NCBI GenBank assembly: GCA_919902495.1
Contig: CAKKRC010000012.1
Location: forward strand, 71,865 to 135,864
From: Nitrospiria bacterium
GTDB taxonomy: Bacteria > Nitrospirota > UBA9217
Direction: 5' to 3'
DNA: 64,000 nucleotides
Positions 9,403 through 31,414 of the stretch are shown here, piece by piece. The notes beneath the pieces are model-generated. The model was not told where the DNA came from. It did no database searches and worked only from the letters and a program-made list of their open reading frames with translations. The translations under genes and the position numbers were made by a program. Position 1 is the first letter of the stretch. Each line of letters starts with the position of its first letter.

Positions 9403-10659
9403 ATGACGACAGACCCCAACGCGCGGTCAGGAGAACATGCCATGGATGACACGATGGATATGCGGTTTCAGGACATCATGGAATTCGTCGCCGAAGAGCA
9501 TACGAGCAGTGAAAGGGGGACAGCACCGATGATCCAGTTCGATGACGATCAGAAGCTTCCGGCCCGGATCAAGGTGATCGGGGTGGGCGGCTGCGGCGGA
9601 AACGCCGTGAGCACGATGGTGCAGGCCGGGATCCAGGGGGTCGAGTTCATCGCGGCCAACACGGACCGGCAGGCGCTCGACGGCACGGGCGCGCCGAGCA
9701 AGTTCCAGATAGGCACCAAGCTCACCCACGGCCGGGGTGCGGGGGCGAATCCCGAGGTCGGCAGGAACGCCGCGCTCGAGGACGCCGACCGCATCAAGGC
9801 GCTGCTGGAGGGGACCGAGATGGTCTTCATCACCGCGGGCATGGGCGGCGGAACGGGGACCGGAGCGGCCCCGGTCATCGCGAAGATCGCCCGCGAGGTC
9901 GGGGCGCTCGCGGTCGCCGTGGTCACCAAACCCTTCAGCTTCGAGGGCGCCCGGCGGATGCGCTACGCCGAGGAAGGGCTCACGGAGCTCAAGAAGAACG
10001 TGGACGCGCTGATCGTGATCCCCAACGACCGGCTGATCAACCTCTCGGAGAAGAACACGCGCATCAGCGAGGCCTTCAAGCTATCCGACGACGTGCTGAT
10101 GCAGGCGGTGAAGGGCATCTCCGACGTGGTCCTCGTCCGGGGCCGGGTGAACGTGGACTTCGCGGACGTGAAGACCGTCATGGCCAACCGCGGGCGCGCG
10201 GTCATGGGCATGGGCATCGCCAAAGGCCCGGGGAGGGGTGTTGAGGCGGCGCACAAGGCCATCTCGAGCCCGCTGCTGGAGGACGGCTCCATCAAGGGCG
10301 CCCGCGCTGCGCTGATCAACATTACCGGCGGCAGCGACCTGGGCATGAGCGAGATCGACGAAGTGATGGGGGTCATCCGGGCCGAGGCGGACCCGGAGGC
10401 GAACATCATCTTCGGGATGGTGGACAACGCCGACATGAGCGAAGAGATCATGGTGACGGTGCTCGCCACGGGTTTCGACGAAGAAGGGGTCCGCAACCTT
10501 GCCAAGAGGCCGTCGAGCCTCAAGGAGTTCCGGAAGACCGAGGAAAAACCGAATCTCAAGCGGAGGCCGGAACTGACGAATACCGGCGATCTTGACCTTT
10601 TCAGCGGGAGGAAGGACAACCTGGACAAACCCGCCTATCTGCGCCGGGCCGCTGATTAG
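9403..10659 (+). CDS. ftsZ: cell division GTPase FtsZ
   Basis: IKVIGVGGCGGNAV and tubulin signature GGGTGTG; start may be internal (MEF... or MIQF...). Confidence 0.95.
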   Translation: MTTDPNARSGEHAMDDTMDMRFQDIMEFVAEEHTSSERGTAPMIQFDDDQKLPARIKVIGVGGCGGNAVSTMVQAGIQGVEFIAANTDRQALDGTGAPSKFQIGTKLTHGRGAGANPEVGRNAALEDADRIKALLEGTEMVFITAGMGGGTGTGAAPVIAKIAREVGALAVAVVTKPFSFEGARRMRYAEEGLTELKKNVDALIVIPNDRLINLSEKNTRISEAFKLSDDVLMQAVKGISDVVLVRGRVNVDFADVKTVMANRGRAVMGMGIAKGPGRGVEAAHKAISSPLLEDGSIKGARAALINITGGSDLGMSEIDEVMGVIRAEADPEANIIFGMVDNADMSEEIMVTVLATGFDEEGVRNLAKRPSSLKEFRKTEEKPNLKRRPELTNTGDLDLFSGRKDNLDKPAYLRRAAD

Positions 10660-10877: not shown

Positions 10878-10923
10878 AAAAAAAATCCCTTCGTGACAGC
10901 GTTTCGACCGTCGTACGAAGGGA
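10878..10923 (-). terminator. rho-independent terminator for minus-strand gene 10957-11313
   Basis: stem tcccttcgt/acgaaggga with 8-nt A-run on plus strand (T-run on minus). Confidence 0.5.
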
Positions 10924-10956
10924 TGGTATTTGAGGAAACGCAGTTCGAAGGGGAAC

Positions 10957-11313
10957 TTAATGGTCCGCGTTCACCGGAACAACGCTTTTGACGGACCGTT
11001 TCTTTTCCAAAACCCGTTCCAGGCCAAGCCGAGTGGCCGAGAAACCCACCTCAGCCGGTTCTTCTTCCTTCTTGACAGCGTTCATGAACTCGCAGCGCCA
11101 GCAGTTGTTCAGCTTCTGCGCGTAGGTCCCCTGGATCTTGCCGCCGCAGAGCGACCCGGCGATGACCCAGCAGGCCCTCCCCGCGTTCTTGCCGTCGTGG
11201 GCGCCGTGAAGGTCCTGGTGGACGGTCACGGGACAGATCCCGAGGTCAGCCGCCTTGTGTCCGCCCGGCTGACGCCCGCATTTCTTGAATTCCCAGCAGT
11301 TCATTTTCCCCAT
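10957..11313 (-). CDS. small CW/Cys-rich protein (two-CW-like domain), paralog 1
   Basis: 118 aa; motifs NCWEFKKCG, CPVT, ACWVIAGSLCGG, NCWRCEF; 70% identical over core to neighbour ORF. Confidence 0.6.
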   Translation of the reverse strand: MGKMNCWEFKKCGRQPGGHKAADLGICPVTVHQDLHGAHDGKNAGRACWVIAGSLCGGKIQGTYAQKLNNCWRCEFMNAVKKEEEPAEVGFSATRLGLERVLEKKRSVKSVVPVNADH

Positions 11314-11372
11314 CGTGCGAGATACCCCTTATTGTAGGAATTATCAGGGAGCGATGCCCTGAGCTTGCATTA

Positions 11373-11771
11373 TTATTTCTGTTTGACCTTTTCCAGGACC
11401 TTCTCGATCCCCAGCCGCGTCGCCGAGAATCCGAACGGCATCGGTTCCTCTTCCTTCTTGACGAGGTTCATGAACTCGCATCGCCAGCAGTTGTTGAGCT
11501 TCTGCGCGTAGGTCCCCTGGATCTTGCCGCCGCAGAGAGAGCCCGCAATGACCCAGCAGGCCCTGCCCCCCTTCTTTCCTTCATGCGCTCCGTCGAAGCC
11601 GTCATGGACGGTCACCGGGCAGGTGCCCAATTCCGCTTCCTTGTGCCCGCCCGGCTGGCGACCGCATTTCTTGAATTCCCAGCAGTTGATCTTAACCGCC
11701 GCCGGGCCCTTTTTTTCTTCGGTCGGCTTAGCCGTGGAACTTTTTTTCCAAGCATCGGACAAAATGGCCAT
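11373..11771 (-). CDS. small CW/Cys-rich protein, paralog 2
   Basis: 132 aa; same Cys/Trp motif set as 10957-11313; tandem duplicate. Confidence 0.6.
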   Translation of the reverse strand: MAILSDAWKKSSTAKPTEEKKGPAAVKINCWEFKKCGRQPGGHKEAELGTCPVTVHDGFDGAHEGKKGGRACWVIAGSLCGGKIQGTYAQKLNNCWRCEFMNLVKKEEEPMPFGFSATRLGIEKVLEKVKQK

Positions 11772-12027
11772 GGGATCACCTCGCGAGAAAAATGATCTGT
11801 GTCGAGCTGTGTACTTCTGTAGCTAAGAGTTTGCAAATCATTTGCCAGAAAATAAATACTAAGAAAACAACATGTTGGATTCCGGAGGGGTTCTCTTTTG
11901 TCTCAGATCTAAGACGGAATTCTCAGCTCTGCGACATCATTTGTTCGTTCATTTTGGAGAATATACGACAATTTAAAAAGCAAAGTCAACCGTATAGTCT
12001 GACTGTCGATGATGTAAAATTGTGATT

Positions 12028-12762
12028 TTATCCGTTGTTCGACGTATCTGATCTCGAGATCGCCGACAGGACGCCGTGCAAGATGCTGATATCGCGTTGT
12101 TCAAGGCGGGACTTTCCGAACAACTGGCGGAGGGAGGTCATCATATGGTCCTTGTTGTGCGGACCAAGGAACCCGCTGTCTTCGAGGGACTTTTGCAGGT
12201 GTTGATAGAAAACCTCCAATGCTTCTGTCGGCGCCAGGGTCTTTCCCGCGGAGACGGTACCGGCATGCGTGGCGAGGAACAGTTCGTACGCGACGATGCA
12301 GACGGCATGGGAGAGGTTCAGGGAGGGAAAGTCGTCGGAAGAGGGGATGACGATGAGCTCGTTGCAGAGGTTCAGGTCTTCGCTGTCCAACCCGTTCACT
12401 TCCCTGCCGAACACCAGCGCGATCCGGTTCTGCGACAGAAGCGGAACGATCCGGTCCGCCATCTCCCGCGGCGTTACGATGTTCCGGCGATGGCGGCCCA
12501 GGTGCCGCGAGGTCCCGATGACGAGGCCGTGTCCGGCGACCGCTTCCTGCAGCGTCTCGGTCCGAACGGCATCACGCAGGATCGCTTCAGCGCCAGCGGC
12601 AAACTTCACCGCCTCGCCCTGGTCGTCCTGGGGCGGACGGACGAGCATCAGACGGGAAAGGCCCATGTTCATCATGGACCGCGCGACAGCGCCGATATTG
12701 CCCGGCGTTTTGGTCCTGACGAGGACGATGCTGACGCTGTTGAGAAGGCCCTGTGCTTTCAT
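12028..12762 (-). CDS. trmJ: SpoU/TrmH-family tRNA 2'-O-methyltransferase (TrmJ-like)
   Basis: IVLVRTKTPGNIGAVARSMMNMG N-terminal SPOUT motif; 244 aa. Confidence 0.75.
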   Translation of the reverse strand: MKAQGLLNSVSIVLVRTKTPGNIGAVARSMMNMGLSRLMLVRPPQDDQGEAVKFAAGAEAILRDAVRTETLQEAVAGHGLVIGTSRHLGRHRRNIVTPREMADRIVPLLSQNRIALVFGREVNGLDSEDLNLCNELIVIPSSDDFPSLNLSHAVCIVAYELFLATHAGTVSAGKTLAPTEALEVFYQHLQKSLEDSGFLGPHNKDHMMTSLRQLFGKSRLEQRDISILHGVLSAISRSDTSNNG

Positions 12763-13122
12763 GATCGATCATCCTGACCCGGACACGCCGGAACTAAGAA
12801 GTTGTTTTTATTGACAGGATTACGGGATACGAGCGGATAAATTCTTTCAACGCTGAAACGCCTATGGATAAATACCATGATTTGCGCTGTAAAGACCAAA
12901 GAACTTACATGGTTCTCTCGTAAAGAAATTCAGCGAACATCTGCGTTGAATTCCTGGATGCCTATTCCGGATTATAAGTGAAAAGGAAGATGAACTGCAA
13001 GGTCTTTCGAGCGGCCAGAACAAAGGGGGATATTGCGGAGCCGCGCAAATTACTCTATACTTATGACGAAGCAGGACGAACAGGAGCCCTTGTCGTTCCA
13101 TCCTTGTTCGAAAGGACATGCC

Positions 13123-13557
13123 ATGCCGCTCTATAAAAAAGGCGAGATGTTCGATCACCCCGGTGTCCACATCGTTACGGCGAATTCCTTTATCAGCGGC
13201 GACGGCACCCTGGTGATGACCATGGGGGCGGGCCTGTCCCTCAAGTCCCGCTATCCCGAGCTGCCGAAGGTCTTCGGCACGATGATAAAGGAGTACAGCG
13301 GACATCTGGGCACCTACGGCCTGCTCCTTTACGGGAACAAGGGCATCCTCCAGACGCGGAGGGACCTTGGCGGCAAGATGGATCCGGACATCATCACCTA
13401 TGGCCTGAAGGTCCTTTACGCCATCGCCGAAGGCAACCACGGCGTCACCTATCACCTCAATCATCCCGGTATCAGCCTGAACAAGATGAGCATGCCCGAG
13501 ATCGATGAGCTTCTCGGCTCGCTGCCGGAGAACGTGTGGATCTGGCAGAGGAAGTAG
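13123..13557 (+). CDS. hypothetical protein, possible macro-domain-like fold
   Basis: HIVTANSFISGDGTLVMTMGAGLSLK resembles macro-domain nucleotide-binding loop; start chosen at Met 13123 inside ORF 13033-13557. Confidence 0.35.
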   Translation: MPLYKKGEMFDHPGVHIVTANSFISGDGTLVMTMGAGLSLKSRYPELPKVFGTMIKEYSGHLGTYGLLLYGNKGILQTRRDLGGKMDPDIITYGLKVLYAIAEGNHGVTYHLNHPGISLNKMSMPEIDELLGSLPENVWIWQRK

Positions 13558-14595: not shown

Positions 14596-16077
14596 GTGGA
14601 CCGCGGTCCGGTCCCATTCGAGCGTATGAACAGTTTATTCATCAACATCCAGCCTATCTATCTGATCTATTTCTTTTACGGCGCGGCATTTCTCATCATG
14701 GCCGCCTCCATCGCCGCAAAGGACATGAAGGGGAGCGAGCTCATGCTCGCGAAGAGCTTGCGGCTTCTCGGCCTGTTCGGCTTGAGCCACGGATTTCACG
14801 AATGGATGCAGCTCTATCCCCTGATCGAAGGCGACCATCTGTCCCTCCGGGCGATATACATTTCCAAGCTCGCGGCCCTGATCGTGTTCATCGTGTCCTA
14901 CCTCTTCCTGCTCTGGTTCGGCCTTACGCTCATCAACGGGGTATCGGAAAAGCGGGTCTGGAGGATCGCCCGGACCGTCCCGGTCCTTCTTGCGGTTGTC
15001 TGGGTCCTGCACGTGTGGTACACGGGATTCACCATGGACATGCAGTTTCTGCGGCAGGCGTCCATTGCGACACGCCACACCTTCGGCCTGTTCGGCAGCC
15101 TTCTGACCGCGTATGGACTGACGGCATATTCCCGCGAGGTCGGATATCTCAGCAGGACCGCAGCGAGGAATCTTGCCTATGCAGGCGCCTCGTTCGGGTT
15201 CTATGGCTTTGTCGCCGGGGTGGTGTCCTCGGGCTTCACCTTGTTCCGCTTTCCCATCCCCGTCGAGGTGCTGCGGGGAGCGGCCGGCATCCTCATAACC
15301 TATTTCATCATCAAGGCGCTCAACATTTTCGATGTGGAGATGCGGAAAAAGATCGAGCTGCAGACACGGCGTATCGTCCAGGCGGAGAAACTGACCTCGC
15401 TGGGCCAGCTCGCGGCAGGCATCGCACATGAGATCAACAACCCCCTGGCGAATGCGTCGCTCGGGATCCAGACGCTGAAGCGCAGGATAAGCGGAGACCG
15501 GATGGACGGGTCGGTACTGGACAAGCTCGAGCTGGTCGAAAGGAACATCGATCGCGCGGCCGGCATCGCCCGCGAGCTGCTCCAGTTCTCCCGCCAGCAG
15601 GAGGTCGATGTCATGCCGGTGCACGTGAACGCCGTGCTGCGCGGGACGCTGACGCTTCTCGAATACAAATTAAAGGGGGTATCCGTCCGCCAGGACCTGC
15701 ACCCTGTTCCGTCCGTCATGGGCGATGCGGGAAAGCTCGAACAGGTCTTTATCAATGTGCTCTCCAATGCCGTGGAGGCGATGCCGCAGGGGGGCAGCAT
15801 GAGCATCGCGACGAGCGTTGAGGGAAGCTTCGTTCAAGTGCGCGTCGACGACAGCGGGAGCGGAATACCGGAAGAGCTGTTGTCCCGGGTGTTCGACCCC
15901 TTCTTCACCACCAAGGACGTGGGAGCGGGGACCGGTCTCGGTCTGGCCATATGCTACGGGATCGTGAAACAGCATCACGGGACGATCGAGCTGCGGAGCA
16001 CCGCAGGCAAGGGCACGACGGTCATCATACGGCTGCCCCGGAGGGAGGACGATGAAAAAGATATTGATCGTGGATGA
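14596..16077 (+). CDS. sensor histidine kinase (membrane, HisKA + HATPase_c)
   Basis: multiple N-terminal TM helices; H-box [10 protein letters not shown] boxes (DSGSGIP, GTGLGL). Confidence 0.85.
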
Positions 16078-16708
16078 TGACAGGGAGATGCGGACGCATC
16101 TTACCGAGATCCTGCGGGGGGCCGGTTATGAGACCGCGGAAGCCGCTTCGGGCCGCGATGCCGTCGAACGGTCGATCGACGAGGATTTTGACCTCGTTCT
16201 GCTGGACCTGATGATGCCGAAGATGAGCGGGATCGATGTTCTCGCGGAGCTGCGGAAGGTCTCGCCCCGGGCGCGGGTCATCATGCTCACCGCCTTTGCG
16301 ACCGTCGAGAGTGCGGTCGATGCCGTAAAACGCGGCGCGAGCGATTATCTCTCCAAACCGTTCAAGATAGACGACCTCCTGACGCGCATGCGGCGGGTCC
16401 TGGAAGAAGCGAGCTTCGACGCCTGCGCCATCGTCGGGGACCTGGACTGCATCCTGGGTTCGCTTTCCAATCTCACGAGGAGAAAGATCATCCGCATCAT
16501 TTCAGCACGGCGGTCTGTGCGGCTCATGGAGCTTGCCCGGGAACTGGACATCGAGGACCATACCAAGGTCATTTTTCACCTGAAAATACTGCGGGCGGCG
16601 GGGATCGTGGAACAGGACAAGGACCGTTCGTATACGCTGACCAAAGAGGGAGAACGAACCATGGCCGGTCTGAAGATCCTGGAGACCCACTTGTCATCCA
16701 CCCCCTGA
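16052..16708 (+). CDS. response regulator, receiver + ArsR-like wHTH
   Basis: KILIVDDD ... DLVLLDLMMP receiver motifs; C-terminal HTH (ARELDIEDHTKVIFHLKILRAAG). Confidence 0.8.
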   Translation: MKKILIVDDDREMRTHLTEILRGAGYETAEAASGRDAVERSIDEDFDLVLLDLMMPKMSGIDVLAELRKVSPRARVIMLTAFATVESAVDAVKRGASDYLSKPFKIDDLLTRMRRVLEEASFDACAIVGDLDCILGSLSNLTRRKIIRIISARRSVRLMELARELDIEDHTKVIFHLKILRAAGIVEQDKDRSYTLTKEGERTMAGLKILETHLSSTP

Positions 16709-19438: not shown

Positions 19439-20920
19439 ATGAAGCGCATCATCATATTATTGGCAATAACAGCACTTGCAGTATCCGCACTCGCTGCCTG
19501 CGGATCGGATAAAAAAGAAGGAAAGGGCGGTATATCCGTCTCGGCAATTGACGGCGGCTACATCGGCACGAGCACCTGCCTGGGCTGTCATGACGGATCT
19601 GTTGCTCAGGACAGGACCAGCTTCAGGCAAACCGGCCATCCCTACAAGTACACGCATACCGGCGGGGAGATCATGGGGACATCGACCATCCCGGGCCTGT
19701 GGACGAGGCCTGTAGCGTCAACCGATTATATCAGTACGCTGAGCCTGAACAACCTGATGGTGCTGGACGGCACGGGACGCCTCGACTGGTCCGCGATCAA
19801 CTACACGATCGGCGGTTACGGTTGGAAGATCCGGTGGGCCATACGGGATACGGTCATGAGCGGCGGTACGACCTCGACCGGCTATGTGTGGGCGGGACCC
19901 AAGGCCCAGTTCAATCTGTGGGGCGTGAATGACACCGGCACGGGCCCCCTGGCCATGTGGTCCGCGTACAATACCGGCAAGGACAAGAAGTACGAGTGCG
20001 CCGTATGCCACAACACCAACGGCATCGTATCCACGAACGGCTACTCCTGCAGGACCGACGGCGGCACCGACGCAGCTCCTGCCCGCACCCAGCCCTGGGC
20101 GAAGAATCCCGGCATGGGTCCGGAGACCCACGGCGGCTACTACAGCTCCTGGACCTTTGACGGCGTACAGTGCGAAGCATGCCACGGGCCCGGTCAGAAC
20201 CACGCCACCACGAACGCCAACATAGGCGTGCTGACGCTGGCAGGCGGCGTTGAGATCTGCGCCAAGTGCCACATCAGGGCGGAAAATACGACCGGCGCGG
20301 GCGCAGAATGCGGAGGAAACGCGGACCCGAGGATACTCACCAACGGCGCGATCGCGGACACCGCCACCGGCTTTATCGGCCATCATGAGTCGTACAACGA
20401 GATGGTGGGCTACAACGGCGACGGCGTTCACGCATCATTGACCTGCACGACCTGCCACGATCCGCACAAGAGGTCGATCAAGGTTGTCAATAACGTCGCC
20501 AGCCTTCTCAACATCACCGATAACGATCTGTCGGCACGGGCAAGGGGCGCCATCAAAGTGAGCTGTGTGAGCATGGGCTGCCATGGCAGCAAATCTGCCA
20601 AAACCATCGTCCTGCAGAATGCACACAGCGGGCTGGAATGCATGGACTGCCACATGGCCGAGGCGAACAAGTCGGCCATCAATGCCTCGACCGCGGGGTG
20701 GGGCCGCAAGGGAGACCTAAAGACCCATATCTTCAGGATCCTTGCCACCGGATCAAGCATCACGAGGACCAATGCCGACGGCAAGGTCATTGCGACCAAC
20801 TACCTGACGCCGAAATACACCTGCGGCAAGTGCCATGACATCAATATCAATCCCGGCACGGGAACGCCCATGACCGAAGCAGAGGCGCAGACCGCGGCAA
20901 CGGGCTACCACACGCCGTAA
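19439..20920 (+). CDS. lipoprotein multiheme c-type cytochrome (OmcB-like)
   Basis: lipobox LAAC after signal peptide; seven CxxCH motifs plus a CX4CH. Confidence 0.9.
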   Translation: MKRIIILLAITALAVSALAACGSDKKEGKGGISVSAIDGGYIGTSTCLGCHDGSVAQDRTSFRQTGHPYKYTHTGGEIMGTSTIPGLWTRPVASTDYISTLSLNNLMVLDGTGRLDWSAINYTIGGYGWKIRWAIRDTVMSGGTTSTGYVWAGPKAQFNLWGVNDTGTGPLAMWSAYNTGKDKKYECAVCHNTNGIVSTNGYSCRTDGGTDAAPARTQPWAKNPGMGPETHGGYYSSWTFDGVQCEACHGPGQNHATTNANIGVLTLAGGVEICAKCHIRAENTTGAGAECGGNADPRILTNGAIADTATGFIGHHESYNEMVGYNGDGVHASLTCTTCHDPHKRSIKVVNNVASLLNITDNDLSARARGAIKVSCVSMGCHGSKSAKTIVLQNAHSGLECMDCHMAEANKSAINASTAGWGRKGDLKTHIFRILATGSSITRTNADGKVIATNYLTPKYTCGKCHDININPGTGTPMTEAEAQTAATGYHTP

Positions 20921-21136: not shown

Positions 21137-21540
21137 CGGGTGAGTGGGCTCAGACAGTCCGAAATGTTTAACCCTCGTTCTCGGTCGCCTGCCTGGATTG
21201 AAGCTCCCAAATGAAACGGCATTGGAGCTTCGATCCTCAAGGTTGCGTGTTTATTCTAATCGCTCGCTATGCGCTCGCTCCTGGATTTTCACACGGGACT
21301 GCAGCGTCACTAGAGTCTGAAAAGGCGCTGCTTTACGCTCCCCTGGTCATTCCGGATTCTGCCTCTTCCCCGTGTCTCCCCATCACGTGTCGCTTAGAAG
21401 CGCCTACTTCTGGCCCCGAGTCGGCTGTCGCTTCTCCGGCTTTTGTTTTGCTCTCTCCCCTCAGGCATAGTATAATCTCCTATGTCACGCGCGCTCAAAG
21501 AGAAGGCCGCGGCCCTGCTCGCCGCGGAGCGGGGGACCGT
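21137..21540 (+). promoter_or_regulatory. copy B of duplicated leader; 5' UTR/upstream region of radical-SAM gene with two internal insertions
   Basis: homologous to 14255-14461; contains one dispersed gcttagaagcgcctacttctgg repeat. Confidence 0.55.
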
Positions 21541-23209
21541 GTTCAAGGCGGCCGGCGCCGACGTAGAGATCGCCCTGGCCTACCCCAACACCTACCATGT
21601 GGGCATGTCAAACCTCGGCGTGCATCAGATCTATTCCGTCCTGAACGGCCGTGATGATACGGCGTGCGAGCGGGTGTTCCTTCCCGACGAGGACGACATT
21701 GCCGAATACGACCGGTCGGGAACACGGCTCTTCGCGCTCGAAAGCCGGCGGCCGGTGCGGGAGTTCGACATCCTCGCCTTTTCCGTTTCCTTCGAGCACG
21801 ATTACCTCAACGTCCTGGAGATGCTCCGCCTTGCCGGGATACCGCCGGACAAAAAGGACCGCGGACCGGGCGACCCGCTCCTCGTCCTGGGCGGGATCTG
21901 CACGTTCTTCAATCCTGAACCGCTCTCGGAGTTCTTCGACATCGTGATCGTGGGAGAGGGCGAAGAGATCGCCGGCGAGTTCCTCGACCGGTACACGGCG
22001 AACCGGGGAAAAGAGCGGCAGGAACTGCTCAAGGCCCTCTGCGGCCTCAGGGGAGTTTATATACCGGAGTTCTACGAGGTCCTGTACAACGACGACGGTA
22101 CGATCCGCGAGCGGCGTTCGCTCGTTGCAGAAGCTCCCGCGACGATCGTGAAGCGCAGCGTTCAGGACATCGACCGGAATCCTGCCGCCACGGTCATTCT
22201 CTCGCCGAACACCGAGTTCAGCGACATGCACCTCGCCGAGGTGACCAGGGGATGCGGCAGGCACTGCCGGTTCTGCATGGCAGGCTACATCTATCTCCCA
22301 CCACGGAACCTGTCGGCAGAGCAGGCGCGGGGCGAGGCACAGAAGGCGGACGAGACGTGCGGAAAGATCGGCCTCGTCGGGTCCGCCCTGTCCGATTATC
22401 CCGGCGTCGACGACCTCTGCTCGTCCATCGCGGGAAGCCTGTCCGTATCGTCCCTGCGCGCCGACTCGCTGAGCAAAACGCTCATCGACCGGCTGGCGAA
22501 GAGCGGCCACAAGACCATCGCCATCGCGCCCGAGGCCGGCTCCGAGCGCCTTCGGAAGGTCATCAACAAGGGCGTGACCGAGGAGGACATCCTGCGCGCC
22601 GCGGACCTCGTCTTCGGCGCGGGCATTCCCAACATGAAATTATACTTCATCATCGGCCTGCCGACGGAGACCCAGGACGACATGGAAGAGATCATCAGGC
22701 TCGCGGAAAAGATCCACGAGGTCCAGCTCCGCCACGCGCGGCCCGCCGGCAGGATCGGAAGGATCACGCTGTCGGTGAACTCCTTCATCCCCAAACCCTT
22801 CACGCCCTTCCAGTGGGAGCCCATGGAGGACGTCCCGAGCCTGAACCGGAAACAGCGCCTGCTCGAAAAGGCCGTGAAGAAGATCGGCAACATGAACATC
22901 ATCCACGACCTTCCCAAGTGGGAGTTCATCCAGGCGCTGCTCAGCCGGGGCGACCGCAGGGTCGGCAGGCTGCTCAGGGCCGCCCATGAACGACACGGCG
23001 ACTGGAAGGGCGTAGCCCGCGAGCTCGGCATGGACATGGAACTGTTCGTCACGCGGCGGCGGGGCTTCGACGAGGTCCTTCCCTGGGATTTCGTTGACAT
23101 CGGCGTGCGAAAAGAATATCTTAAGAACGAGTACGGGCGCGCCCTCGAAGGGAAGTTCACTCCGCCCTGCAGGGTCGGCTCGTGCACGGCCTGCGGGGTG
23201 TGCGAGTAA
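21482..23209 (+). CDS. B12-binding-domain radical SAM protein
   Basis: 575 aa; CGRHCRFC CxxxCxxC motif; N-terminal cobalamin-binding-like domain. Confidence 0.85.
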   Translation: MSRALKEKAAALLAAERGTVFKAAGADVEIALAYPNTYHVGMSNLGVHQIYSVLNGRDDTACERVFLPDEDDIAEYDRSGTRLFALESRRPVREFDILAFSVSFEHDYLNVLEMLRLAGIPPDKKDRGPGDPLLVLGGICTFFNPEPLSEFFDIVIVGEGEEIAGEFLDRYTANRGKERQELLKALCGLRGVYIPEFYEVLYNDDGTIRERRSLVAEAPATIVKRSVQDIDRNPAATVILSPNTEFSDMHLAEVTRGCGRHCRFCMAGYIYLPPRNLSAEQARGEAQKADETCGKIGLVGSALSDYPGVDDLCSSIAGSLSVSSLRADSLSKTLIDRLAKSGHKTIAIAPEAGSERLRKVINKGVTEEDILRAADLVFGAGIPNMKLYFIIGLPTETQDDMEEIIRLAEKIHEVQLRHARPAGRIGRITLSVNSFIPKPFTPFQWEPMEDVPSLNRKQRLLEKAVKKIGNMNIIHDLPKWEFIQALLSRGDRRVGRLLRAAHERHGDWKGVARELGMDMELFVTRRRGFDEVLPWDFVDIGVRKEYLKNEYGRALEGKFTPPCRVGSCTACGVCE

Positions 23210-29014: not shown

Positions 29015-31414
29015 ATGTCTGACAAGAAAGCACTTCTCCAGGCCATAGCAAAAGAAGAAGCCCGGCTTTCGAGGTTGGACGGTGAACGCGAACAGGCGCT
29101 TTCAAGGCTCAATTCCCTCAAACATCAACTTGCCGCGCTGGAAGCAGCATGCGTTGAGCCATCGATAACCTACGCTTCCAGAACACCGCAGGAAAAAGTG
29201 TCATTGTTCCGCTCGCTATTTCGGGGGAGGGAGGATATCTTCCCGAAGTTATGGACGAGCCGTGCCGGCAAGAAAGGTTATTCTCCCGCCTGCTCGAATG
29301 ATTGGATCTCCGGCACGTGCGGAAAGACGCACAAACCGCCGGTAAAATGCAGCGAATGCTCCAATCGTAAATTCCTTCCAGTAACCGACCAGGTTATCAC
29401 GGATCATCTCCAGGGGCGTCACGTAATCGGCGTTTACCCAATGCTGCCTGACGATACCTGCTGGTTTCTTGCCGCTGACTTCGATAAAGAAACATGGATG
29501 GACGACGTCAGCGCCTTCCGTGAAACCTGTAAGAGTATGAATATCCCCGTGGTTGTCGAGCGTTCGCGTTCGGGAAACGGAGCGCACGCATGGTTTTTCT
29601 TTACTGAACCTGTGGCGGCAGCTACAGCGCGAACTATCGGATGTTACCTGATCACGGAAACCATGAGCCGGCGTCACCAACTCAGCATGGAATCCTACGA
29701 CCGGTTGTTTCCCAGCCAGGATACGCTGACCAAGGGCGGATTTGGGAATCTGATCGCACTGCCGTTTCAGCAGGAACCACGACAAAAGGGCAATACCGTG
29801 TTTTTGGATGAGAGTTTTACGCCTTATGAAGATCAATGGGCGTATCTGGCCTCGATCGAACGACTGTCTCCGAATGTCGTCCAACAGATCGCCAATGAAG
29901 CAATACGGCAGGGCGACGTGCTCGGGTTGCCCAGAGATTCCGAGGCAGAAAGTGACGATCAGGCACCATGGAACCGTACACCATCGCGTAAAAAACCGCT
30001 AAAGAAAATCAGCGGGAAATTTCCAACTGAAACGCACGGTGTTTTTGCTCAACGTCTGTTTGTCGAGAAGAAGGATTTGCCATCATCTTTTTTGACCCGC
30101 ATCAAACGGTTAGCTTCGTTTCAAAATCCGATGTTTTATGAGAAACAAAACTTGCGTCTCTCAACGGCCCGGATACCGCGTGTGATTTCCTGCTTTGAAG
30201 AGCTTCCCGAACATATTGCTGTCCCGAGAGGCTGTTTCGACAGACTTCAAGAGCTATTCGTGGAGCATGGTGTGAAACTCGTGCTCGATGACAAACGAAT
30301 TGCGCTGCCAGGACCATCTTATTCCTTTCAGGGAACGCTGAGAGAAGCGCAGCAAGAAGCCATCGACGAGATCCTTCATTACGATCTCGGCGTTCTATCC
30401 GCGCCGCCGGGATTTGGCAAGACCGTTATCGGCGCGTATCTCATTGCAAAACGCAGCTGTAGTACACTCGTACTCGTTCATCGAAAGGAATTGTTAGACC
30501 AATGGATCGCAAGGCTTTCCCTCTTTCTCGGAATTGATCCGAAAGAAATCGGCAAGATCGGGTCAGGCAAGAACAAGCCGAACGGGAGGTTGGATGTTGC
30601 GATGATCCAGAGCCTTGTCCGCAAAGACGAAGTTAGCGATCTGGTGGCCAACTATGGTCAGGTGATAGTGGATGAATGCCATCATCTCCCCGCTGTTTCC
30701 TTTGAGCGTGTCTTGAACGAGGTGAAAGCACGATACGTTGTCGGTTTGACGGCAACGCCGTATCGACGGGACGGGCACCAGCCGATCATTCACATGCAGT
30801 GTGGACCAGTCCGCTTTTCCGTTCATCCAAAAAGCCAAGATGCAAGATCGCAGTTCAAGCACCAGTTGATCTGCAGAACAACTGAATTTACCATGGAGAA
30901 TCCTGATGCCGCGATTCAGGACATTTTCGCAAATGTCGTTAACGACAAGATGCGAAACGCTCTTATTCTTGCTGATGTAAGGCAGGCGCTCAAGGAGGGA
31001 AGATTCCCGGTGCTTCTGACTGAGCGGAAAGAGCATTTGGACCTCCTCGCGGTCGGTTTACGAGATGATGTGAAGCACCTTATCGTTTTAAGCGGCAGAC
31101 TGTCAGCTAAAGAGCGGCGTGAAACCATGGCAAGACTCGCGGCAATTCCGGAAGGCGAAGTGCGACTCATTGCGGCAACTGGTCGTTACCTTGGAGAGGG
31201 CTTCGATGATCCCCAGCTTGATACATTGATTCTGGCAATGCCGTTTTCCTGGAAAGGTACCATCGTACAGTATGCGGGCAGGCTCCACCGGGAACATCCG
31301 GGGAAGCATGAAGTTCGAGTGTACGATTATATCGATGTCAAAGTGCCAAAGTTGTTTCGGATGCACAAGAAGAGGCTTCGCGGTTTCCGAGATATCGGAT
31401 ATATAATGGAATAA
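29015..31414 (+). CDS. archaeo-eukaryotic primase (PrimPol-like) - SF2 helicase fusion protein
   Basis: N-term coiled coil, Zn-ribbon CxxC..CxxC, AEP motifs (WFLAADFDKE; SGNGAHAWFFF); C-term helicase Walker A APPGFGKT, DECHH box, GLTATP motif III. Confidence 0.8.
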   Translation: MSDKKALLQAIAKEEARLSRLDGEREQALSRLNSLKHQLAALEAACVEPSITYASRTPQEKVSLFRSLFRGREDIFPKLWTSRAGKKGYSPACSNDWISGTCGKTHKPPVKCSECSNRKFLPVTDQVITDHLQGRHVIGVYPMLPDDTCWFLAADFDKETWMDDVSAFRETCKSMNIPVVVERSRSGNGAHAWFFFTEPVAAATARTIGCYLITETMSRRHQLSMESYDRLFPSQDTLTKGGFGNLIALPFQQEPRQKGNTVFLDESFTPYEDQWAYLASIERLSPNVVQQIANEAIRQGDVLGLPRDSEAESDDQAPWNRTPSRKKPLKKISGKFPTETHGVFAQRLFVEKKDLPSSFLTRIKRLASFQNPMFYEKQNLRLSTARIPRVISCFEELPEHIAVPRGCFDRLQELFVEHGVKLVLDDKRIALPGPSYSFQGTLREAQQEAIDEILHYDLGVLSAPPGFGKTVIGAYLIAKRSCSTLVLVHRKELLDQWIARLSLFLGIDPKEIGKIGSGKNKPNGRLDVAMIQSLVRKDEVSDLVANYGQVIVDECHHLPAVSFERVLNEVKARYVVGLTATPYRRDGHQPIIHMQCGPVRFSVHPKSQDARSQFKHQLICRTTEFTMENPDAAIQDIFANVVNDKMRNALILADVRQALKEGRFPVLLTERKEHLDLLAVGLRDDVKHLIVLSGRLSAKERRETMARLAAIPEGEVRLIAATGRYLGEGFDDPQLDTLILAMPFSWKGTIVQYAGRLHREHPGKHEVRVYDYIDVKVPKLFRMHKKRLRGFRDIGYIME

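Follow-up and report, generated by a model that had tools for sequence, protein, structure and literature searches.

This report concerns a pair of adjacent genes for small, cysteine-rich proteins in a 64,000-nucleotide (nt) stretch of the genome of a Nitrospiria bacterium (GenBank assembly GCA_919902495.1, contig CAKKRC010000012.1, positions 71,865 to 135,864 of the forward strand). This whole 64-kb stretch is called the window, and positions are given within it. Both genes are open reading frames (ORFs) on the minus strand; the upstream gene, W2 (11373..11771), encodes 132 amino acids (aa) and the downstream gene, W1 (10957..11313), encodes 118 aa, in agreement with an earlier note on this DNA that had reported two adjacent minus-strand genes of these lengths. 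W2 is proximal to trmJ, a gene for an RNA 2'-O-methyltransferase of the TrmJ/YjtD family (12028..12762, minus strand; TIGR00050, 203 bits against a cutoff of 167), which is the same-strand upstream neighbour. W1 is proximal to ftsZ (9403..10659; ORF and translation), which lies at the end of the division and cell-wall (dcw) cluster. Since ftsZ is on the plus strand and the pair on the minus, the two are convergent, as the note had said; ftsA, beside ftsZ, is likewise convergent with the pair. W1 and W2 are additional members of a family that is named, the two-CW domain family, but functionally uncharacterised.

The two proteins aligned without gaps over 102 residues, of which 85 were identical (83%; BLASTP, E = 2e-66). 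A shared core had been recognised previously, but its identity was put at about 70% and is in fact higher. The motifs NCWEFKKCG, CPVT, ACWVIAGSLCGG and NCWRCEF, also described in the note, were read directly in both translations, and each protein contained seven cysteines and three Cys-Trp dipeptides when these were counted; in W1 the cysteines are C6, C12, C27, C48, C56, C71 and C74. The alignment bore out the differing tails as well. W2 has an N-terminal extension of 26 residues and a short, Lys-rich C-terminus, while in W1 the domain begins at residue 4 and is followed by a C-terminal tail of 14 residues, the last being His. With masses of 13–14.5 kDa, a pI of about 9 and hydrophobic segments never longer than 7 residues, both proteins are predicted to be basic and cytoplasmic.

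Of 120 close homologues, 61 had the terminal His of the ftsZ-proximal copy (10960-10962), against 2 of 88 sequences from the wider family; the rest of that tail was variable. This residue might serve as an eighth ligand to the metal, or else mark the protein for processing or recognition. The public record of W1 is 115 aa long and starts at Met4, and so differs from the 118-aa start (11302-11313). The longer form was favoured because orthologues whose fourth residue is Leu or Ile retain an MGK or MSK N-terminus. Across about 13 codons (SLCGGKIQGTYAQ; W1 codons ~53–65, ~11119-11157, and the W2 equivalent), no synonymous differences were seen between the copies or among orthologues in six genomes. 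A nucleotide-level element inside the coding region was considered for this run and rejected; synonymous entropy across the family was only mildly lowered there, and the run was therefore attributed to codon bias, local gene conversion, or both.

Family membership was established with the NCBIfam model NF045718 (two_CW_domain), which has 80 positions and a curated cutoff of 35 bits. W1 scored 103.5 bits over positions 1–80 and W2 101 bits over positions 2–80, i.e., full-length matches at about three times the cutoff. NCBI has the exact sequence of W2 as MEK6742393.1 and W1, in its 115-aa version, as MEK6742392.1; both records are named 'two-CW domain-containing protein [Nitrospirota bacterium]'. 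The match and the naming together showed that the earlier guess of a two-CW-type family was right, and that the annotation was already public. The note had proposed a HMMER search, and its outcome depended on the collection: NCBIfam returned NF045718 for both proteins, whereas Pfam returned nothing for either, even at E ≤ 1. At that threshold there was no match to Fer4, WhiB (PF02467), zf-CW (PF07496), other zinc-finger families or CZB (PF13682), and none of the PADLOC anti-phage defence models matched.

All elements of the family pattern (C6-W7, C48-W49, C12, C27, C56, C71 and C74) were present in both W1 and W2, which therefore share with the family the whole model, its seven invariant cysteines and its two invariant CW dipeptides. 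They differ in belonging to a stand-alone subfamily, expanded in Nitrospirota, in which CW occurs a third time (C71-W72) and the C-terminus is extended by a conserved stretch, EEEPxxxGFS(A/H)TRLGxExxLEK, beyond which W1 also ends in His. The three CW dipeptides of the earlier description are thus real in both proteins, but the third is specific to the subfamily and not a feature of the family.

The family is large. Conserved homologues, on whose existence the earlier proposal had been made to depend, numbered more than 1,100 (1,109 at E ≤ 1e-3 in a word-indexed search), the best 120 being 70–92% identical to W1. When 1.84 billion representatives at 50% identity were searched exhaustively with HMMER, 1,678 clusters matched, of which 977 reached E ≤ 1e-10, and a profile built from diverse two-CW domains gave at least 7,990 clusters (90% identity) at E ≤ 1e-5. 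Stand-alone proteins of 150 aa or less made up 91 of the best 149 representatives. Nitrospirota/Nitrospirae, Thermodesulfovibrionales, Omnitrophota and Ammonifex were the sources named, in a set where cluster look-ups of diverse representatives returned almost no taxonomy.

Conservation was concentrated on the cysteines. All seven were retained in 381 of 391 family domains; C56 was the only one ever absent (9 cases), and a substitute Cys was then usually found a few residues away. Among 150 representatives at 50% identity the near-invariant columns were the seven cysteines, W7, W49, R14, G45 and R46. Residue 39 varied between His and Asn, so His39 is not a ligand. An AlphaFold model of W1 made from a 100-sequence alignment reached a pLDDT of 80.9 and a pTM of 0.69, and replaced one from a shallow alignment of 32 sequences that was unusable (pLDDT 52). 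The predicted fold is compact and poor in secondary structure, consisting mostly of loop with short helices, and it appears, as modelled, to be novel.

To place the pair in context, species genomes of GTDB were scanned, which yielded 443 two-CW loci; context was analysed for 81–82 loci. Nearly all of the best 80 came from metagenome-assembled genomes of Nitrospirota, with 4–5 loci per genome within that set. The order trmJ, then one or two two-CW copies, then convergent ftsZ-ftsA was found in about 35 of 81 loci, where FtsZ was 57–94% identical to that of the window, and trmJ adjoined two-CW genes in about 33 related loci. The earlier view that a tandem beside the division cluster is unusual was therefore not sustained; the trmJ/ftsZ position is conserved synteny in about 35 Nitrospirota species, and tandem pairs recur elsewhere. 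W1 and W2 had diverged at synonymous sites (dS ~0.93) under a nonsynonymous-to-synonymous ratio (dN/dS) of 0.11. In a neighbour-joining tree they fell into separate orthologous clades, W2 with copies from loci L002, L003, L004, L005, L007, L013 and L019, and W1 with copies from L002, L003, L004, L005 and L013. These results indicate that the duplication is old and that both copies have been maintained by purifying selection.

Expression signals were found on either side of the pair. W2 is preceded by a ribosome-binding site, GAGGTGA (11782-11776, minus strand), and W1 by another, AAGGGG (11330-11325, minus strand). Downstream of W1 is an intrinsic terminator of the probable W2-W1 operon (10878..10924, minus strand), with a 10-bp outer stem and an inner stem followed by T8; the stem occupies 10924-10885 and the T-run extends to 10878. 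The earlier note had placed a hairpin past the 118-aa gene, and folding confirmed it (dG = -23.4 kcal/mol, z = -4.75, with none of 200 shuffled sequences folding equally well). A simple terminator scan had missed this hairpin because its loop is long and structured.

The 256-nt spacer between trmJ and W2, aligned across six genomes (the window and five relatives), contained three conserved blocks. The block nearest W2 is a sigma-54 type promoter, TGGCAAATGATTTGCA (11832..11847, minus strand), with the -24 GG and -12 GC at canonical spacing, 61 nt before the W2 ATG; transcription is predicted to begin near 11821, some 50 nt 5' of the ATG. This was the sole strict match to TGGCA-N6-TTGCW on either strand of the window, and the spacer alignment showed it to be retained in orthologous loci. 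The association extends beyond the window. Of 27 strict motifs in the 1.86 Mb of fetched loci, 17 preceded a two-CW gene by no more than 330 nt; among 82 loci, 17 carried the motif in this position where 0.4 were expected (~40-fold enrichment). With a relaxed sigma-54 score, hits rose to 24 of 82 loci, against 1.9 expected.

Further upstream is a candidate site for an enhancer-binding protein (11900..11935, minus strand), where a palindrome of 16 bp (11900-11915) is accompanied, 20 nt away, by a direct repeat copy of 15 nt (11921-11935). In the six-genome alignment an invariant 26-nt block, TGAGAnTnCCGTCTTAnnnnTGAGAC, covered 11925-11900, and an exact match to it was found only in the five closest syntenic loci. 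The element is about 80–105 nt upstream of the predicted start, the usual binding place of enhancer-binding proteins. Just past the trmJ stop codon, a promoter scan identified a sigma-70-like element, TTGACT-18-TATATT (11960..11989, minus strand), which was kept in L002, L003 and L013. With a start near 11953, it may serve as a second promoter or drive a leader transcript; alternatively, it may act as an operator. A scan of the locus against Rfam gave no match. Sigma-54 dependence of W2-W1 is inferred from these motifs, and sigma-54 control of two-CW genes, if the motifs are read correctly, is newly noted here. The arrangement resembles NtrC-type sigma-54 regulons in its TGGCA-N6-TTGCA spacing and in the dyad and repeat some 80–105 nt upstream; a third resemblance is seen at other loci, where paralogous two-CW pairs lie directly 3' of REC-Sigma54_activat-HTH_8 and histidine-kinase genes.

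These other loci belong to a set of 46 non-syntenic two-CW loci whose surroundings were enriched in signalling genes. The genes upstream encoded PAS/HisKA kinases in 10–13 of 41 cases and ADP-forming acyl-CoA-synthetase-like proteins in 9 of 41; those downstream encoded Fer4_5 membrane polyferredoxins (9 of 43), chemoreceptors (5 of 43) and CheW (3 of 43). At L021 (799-7667), L034 (700-8769) and L057 (1088-9832) the cluster comprised, in this order, an NtrC-type activator (REC-Sigma54_activat-HTH_8), a multi-PAS/GAF histidine kinase, a canonical two-CW gene and a divergent two-CW gene. The same kind of cluster recurred at L025, L027, L028, L041, L052 and L062. In the few loci checked against Pfam, the pair was followed 3' by a chemoreceptor (L034, L052), a hybrid kinase (L052) or a small receiver protein (L027). 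A sigma-54 motif was present 5' of the embedded pair at L021 (11 of 12 consensus positions) and L057 (strict), as well as at L025, L041, L052 and L062; none was found upstream of the L034 pair. Dyads of the form GGGCA-N4-5-GCCC lay upstream at L021, L025, L041 and L052, in the same place as the element in the window and with a different sequence. The recurrence of such embedded pairs indicates that the tandem two-CW arrangement is a repeated format.

Other members showed further associations. At L037, L038, L043, L046 to L049 and L056, a stand-alone two-CW gene was followed, about 150 nt downstream, by a gene for a membrane polyferredoxin of ~336 aa (Fer4_5, NapH-like); upstream of the same loci, and divergent, were ADP-forming acyl-CoA-synthetase-like genes (CoA_binding_2 / Succ_CoA_lig). 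Chemoreceptors containing CZB adjoined some two-CW genes as separate proteins, and some other stand-alone members adjoined genes for REC-GAF proteins, methyl-accepting chemotaxis proteins (MCP) or kinases.

In longer members of the family the domain occupied one end or the other, N- or C-terminal, of proteins with many kinds of signalling architecture. It was fused to PAS/GAF HisKA/HATPase histidine kinases, hybrid kinases among them; to Ser/Thr kinases (Pkinase) with a cyclic-nucleotide-binding (cNMP) domain, with or without PP2C; to a NIT-MCPsignal chemoreceptor, to PAS-GGDEF and to adenylate cyclase; and to HAMP-STAS, Usp, cNMP-rhodanese, PilZ and rubrerythrin. Receiver (REC) domains accompanied it in 6 of 38 mid-size proteins. 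No fusion to a division-protein domain was present among the architectures found. The variety of signalling outputs to which the domain is joined marks it as a signalling input or adaptor module.

Two characterised groups of proteins offered functional analogies. WhiB-like (Wbl) proteins are actinobacterial [4Fe-4S] proteins whose cluster senses O2 or NO. They resemble stand-alone two-CW proteins in being ~80–130 aa long, cytoplasmic, Cys-rich and present as multiple paralogues per genome. The two differ in that two-CW proteins have no sequence similarity to Wbl, have seven cysteines rather than four, in another order and in another phylum, and often form part of signalling enzymes, whereas Wbl proteins are free of such fusions; an iron-sulphur (Fe-S) cluster in two-CW proteins is, moreover, putative. 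Direct reading of W1 and W2 did not reveal the order of the Wbl motif (Cys-x(14-22)-Cys-x2-Cys-x5-Cys), nor the ferredoxin spacing CxxCxxCxxxCP. The second analogy is with CZB, a four-helix bundle with a His3Cys site, a cytoplasmic metal-thiolate sensory module that chemoreceptors carry at their C-terminus and that is present in diguanylate cyclases and as a stand-alone protein as well. The placement of two-CW is similar, as it follows MCPsignal in one protein (P0165) and precedes GGDEF in another (P0169). Homology to CZB was undetected (Pfam, E ≤ 1), and the two-CW domain differs in having seven cysteines and another predicted secondary structure.

The evidence was interpreted, with moderate confidence, as pointing to a pair of proteins under sigma-54 control that hold a metal-thiolate centre, probably Fe-S, and act in trans on signalling partners as sensors or adaptors. 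W2 and W1 would be transcribed as one bicistronic message from the sigma-54 promoter at 11847-11832, after activation by an enhancer-binding protein at the palindrome and repeat (11935-11900), and the message would end at the hairpin (10924-10878). Each protein would form a compact domain around the seven invariant cysteines and hold one or two metal-thiolate centres, a metal-binding or redox role being plausible from the near-constant cysteines and the fusions to signalling outputs. An Fe-S cluster would be the likeliest centre, given the anaerobic lineage, the C27-P28 motif and the redox neighbours; the pointers towards it, all indirect, are the invariance of the cysteines, the ligand-like Cys-Pro at C27-P28, the anaerobic source lineages and the neighbouring polyferredoxins. 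The subfamily-specific helix that follows the domain (GFSATRLGxExxLEK) would contact signalling partners. Because the same domain is covalently joined, in hundreds of proteins elsewhere, to kinases, chemoreceptors, cyclases and receivers, the stand-alone W1 and W2 may modulate signalling partners in trans; they would respond to redox state or metal as sensors or adaptors, perhaps paired with each other. Metal or Fe-S binding, sensing, action in trans and heterodimerisation are all inferred properties. A bolder form of the proposal is that two-CW is a previously unrecognised, new-fold metal-thiolate (Fe-S or other) sensor of redox state, O2 or NO in anaerobes, a counterpart of the WhiB-like proteins that in Nitrospirota was freed from enzymes and expanded as sigma-54-induced, trans-acting hetero-pairs, with the trmJ/ftsZ pair as a conserved 'core' member. 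This is offered tentatively, as possible but on balance doubtful.

Several observations weigh against the interpretation of the pair as sigma-54-controlled sensors. The cysteine spacing (x5, x14, x20, x7, x14, x2) fits no canonical Fe-S or zinc motif. A PDB sequence profile returned no solved relative, the best Foldseek hit in PDB and BFVD had an E of only 3.7, and a literature search found no paper on the family and no metal, cofactor or ligand reported for any member. Since the domain is found at C-termini and behind receiver domains too, it could be an output or interaction module instead of a sensor. Many stand-alone members lie in unrelated housekeeping contexts (selB/selA, scpAB, nadA-rrf2). 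As to regulation, the more distant syntenic loci were without the strict sigma-54 motif. The window differs from NtrC-type regulons in encoding no sigma-54 activator, and it encodes no obvious partner; the conserved sigma-70-like promoter, a second difference from those regulons, makes dual or alternative control possible.

In the strongest rival explanation, two-CW is a purely structural zinc-binding interaction or adaptor module that holds one or two Zn for stability and whose metal site senses nothing. Invariant cysteines in a small, loop-rich predicted fold would be expected of such a module, as would positions at either terminus and after receiver domains, which are typical of interaction and output modules; there is one CxxC knuckle (C71-x2-C74), and the basic pI is compatible with binding to nucleic acid or a partner. 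However, two CxxC pairs are normal in zinc ribbons and treble clefs, where two-CW has a single one, and the zinc-finger families of Pfam were unmatched at E ≤ 1. The anaerobic source lineages, the polyferredoxin neighbours and the input-type positions in kinases and chemoreceptors fit a redox centre better. Structural zinc was accordingly judged unlikely, although it retains appreciable weight.

The remaining explanations were given far less credence. Adjacency to ftsZ in about 25 related species-level genomes might suggest that the pair regulate cell division in functional coupling with ftsZ, perhaps as redox modulators of FtsZ comparable to WhiB-type control of septation. Yet the pair is convergent with ftsZ and has a promoter and a terminator to itself; the link to trmJ is at least as tight as that to ftsZ; in several genomes other genes, spanning 1.3–4.6 kb, lie between the pair and ftsZ; and close paralogues, like the wider family, are found in signalling clusters or unrelated contexts, with no fusion of two-CW to division-protein domains. 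A division role is unsupported and very improbable, the adjacency to ftsZ being lineage-specific synteny. It is more improbable still that W1 and W2 are Cys-rich precursors of ribosomally synthesised and post-translationally modified peptides (RiPPs), or metallothionein-like metal buffers, rather than signalling proteins. Their small size, Cys-richness, several copies per genome and variable C-terminal tails would suit either role, but conservation falls on the Cys-rich domain itself, for which a fold is predicted and which signalling enzymes carry as a fusion; no maturase, transporter or protease recurred among the neighbours; and the Cys content (6%) is far under that of metallothioneins, with no leader-and-core layout. 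That the ORFs are not functional genes has nothing but their small size to recommend it and is next to impossible. Against it stand a dN/dS of 0.11, upwards of 1,100 close homologues in a family of at least 7,990 clusters, conserved synteny, and the presence of ribosome-binding sites, a promoter and a terminator; a reading of the pair as pseudogenes was refuted by conservation.

Elsewhere in the window, a 174-aa ORF (13033-13557, plus strand) had a counterpart at the same position in L002 and L013 that was 77–85% identical, and gave no Pfam or NCBIfam match. A 799-aa protein encoded at 29015-31414 (plus strand) contained primase-polymerase (PrimPol) and XPB/RadD-like helicase regions, and may be part of a mobile element or defence island. 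A histidine kinase and a REC-HTH response regulator were encoded at 14596-16708 (plus strand). Further genes, all on the plus strand, encoded a multihaem-cytochrome-like protein (19439-20920), a TIGR03960 B12-binding radical SAM protein (21482-23209) and a protein like CdhD, the delta subunit of CO dehydrogenase/acetyl-CoA synthase (33941-35128). The kinase and regulator, together with these last three, are consistent with an anaerobic Nitrospirota host.

The value of the finding rests on the size of the family, the apparent novelty of its fold, its wiring into signalling and its predicted sigma-54 control; the interest does not lie in the tandem beside ftsZ as such. The family, with its thousands of proteins from anaerobic bacteria and no Pfam entry, is a large blind spot, yet it is tied into histidine-kinase, Ser/Thr-kinase, chemotaxis, cyclic di-GMP and partner-switching pathways. 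W1 and W2 are small, soluble and stand-alone, with a predictable sigma-54 promoter, and would be convenient first targets for biochemistry and structure determination. If the seven-cysteine centre were a redox-active cluster, the two-CW domain would represent a new class of cytoplasmic sensor input domain, and would provide a handle on redox and metal sensing in uncultured Nitrospirota.

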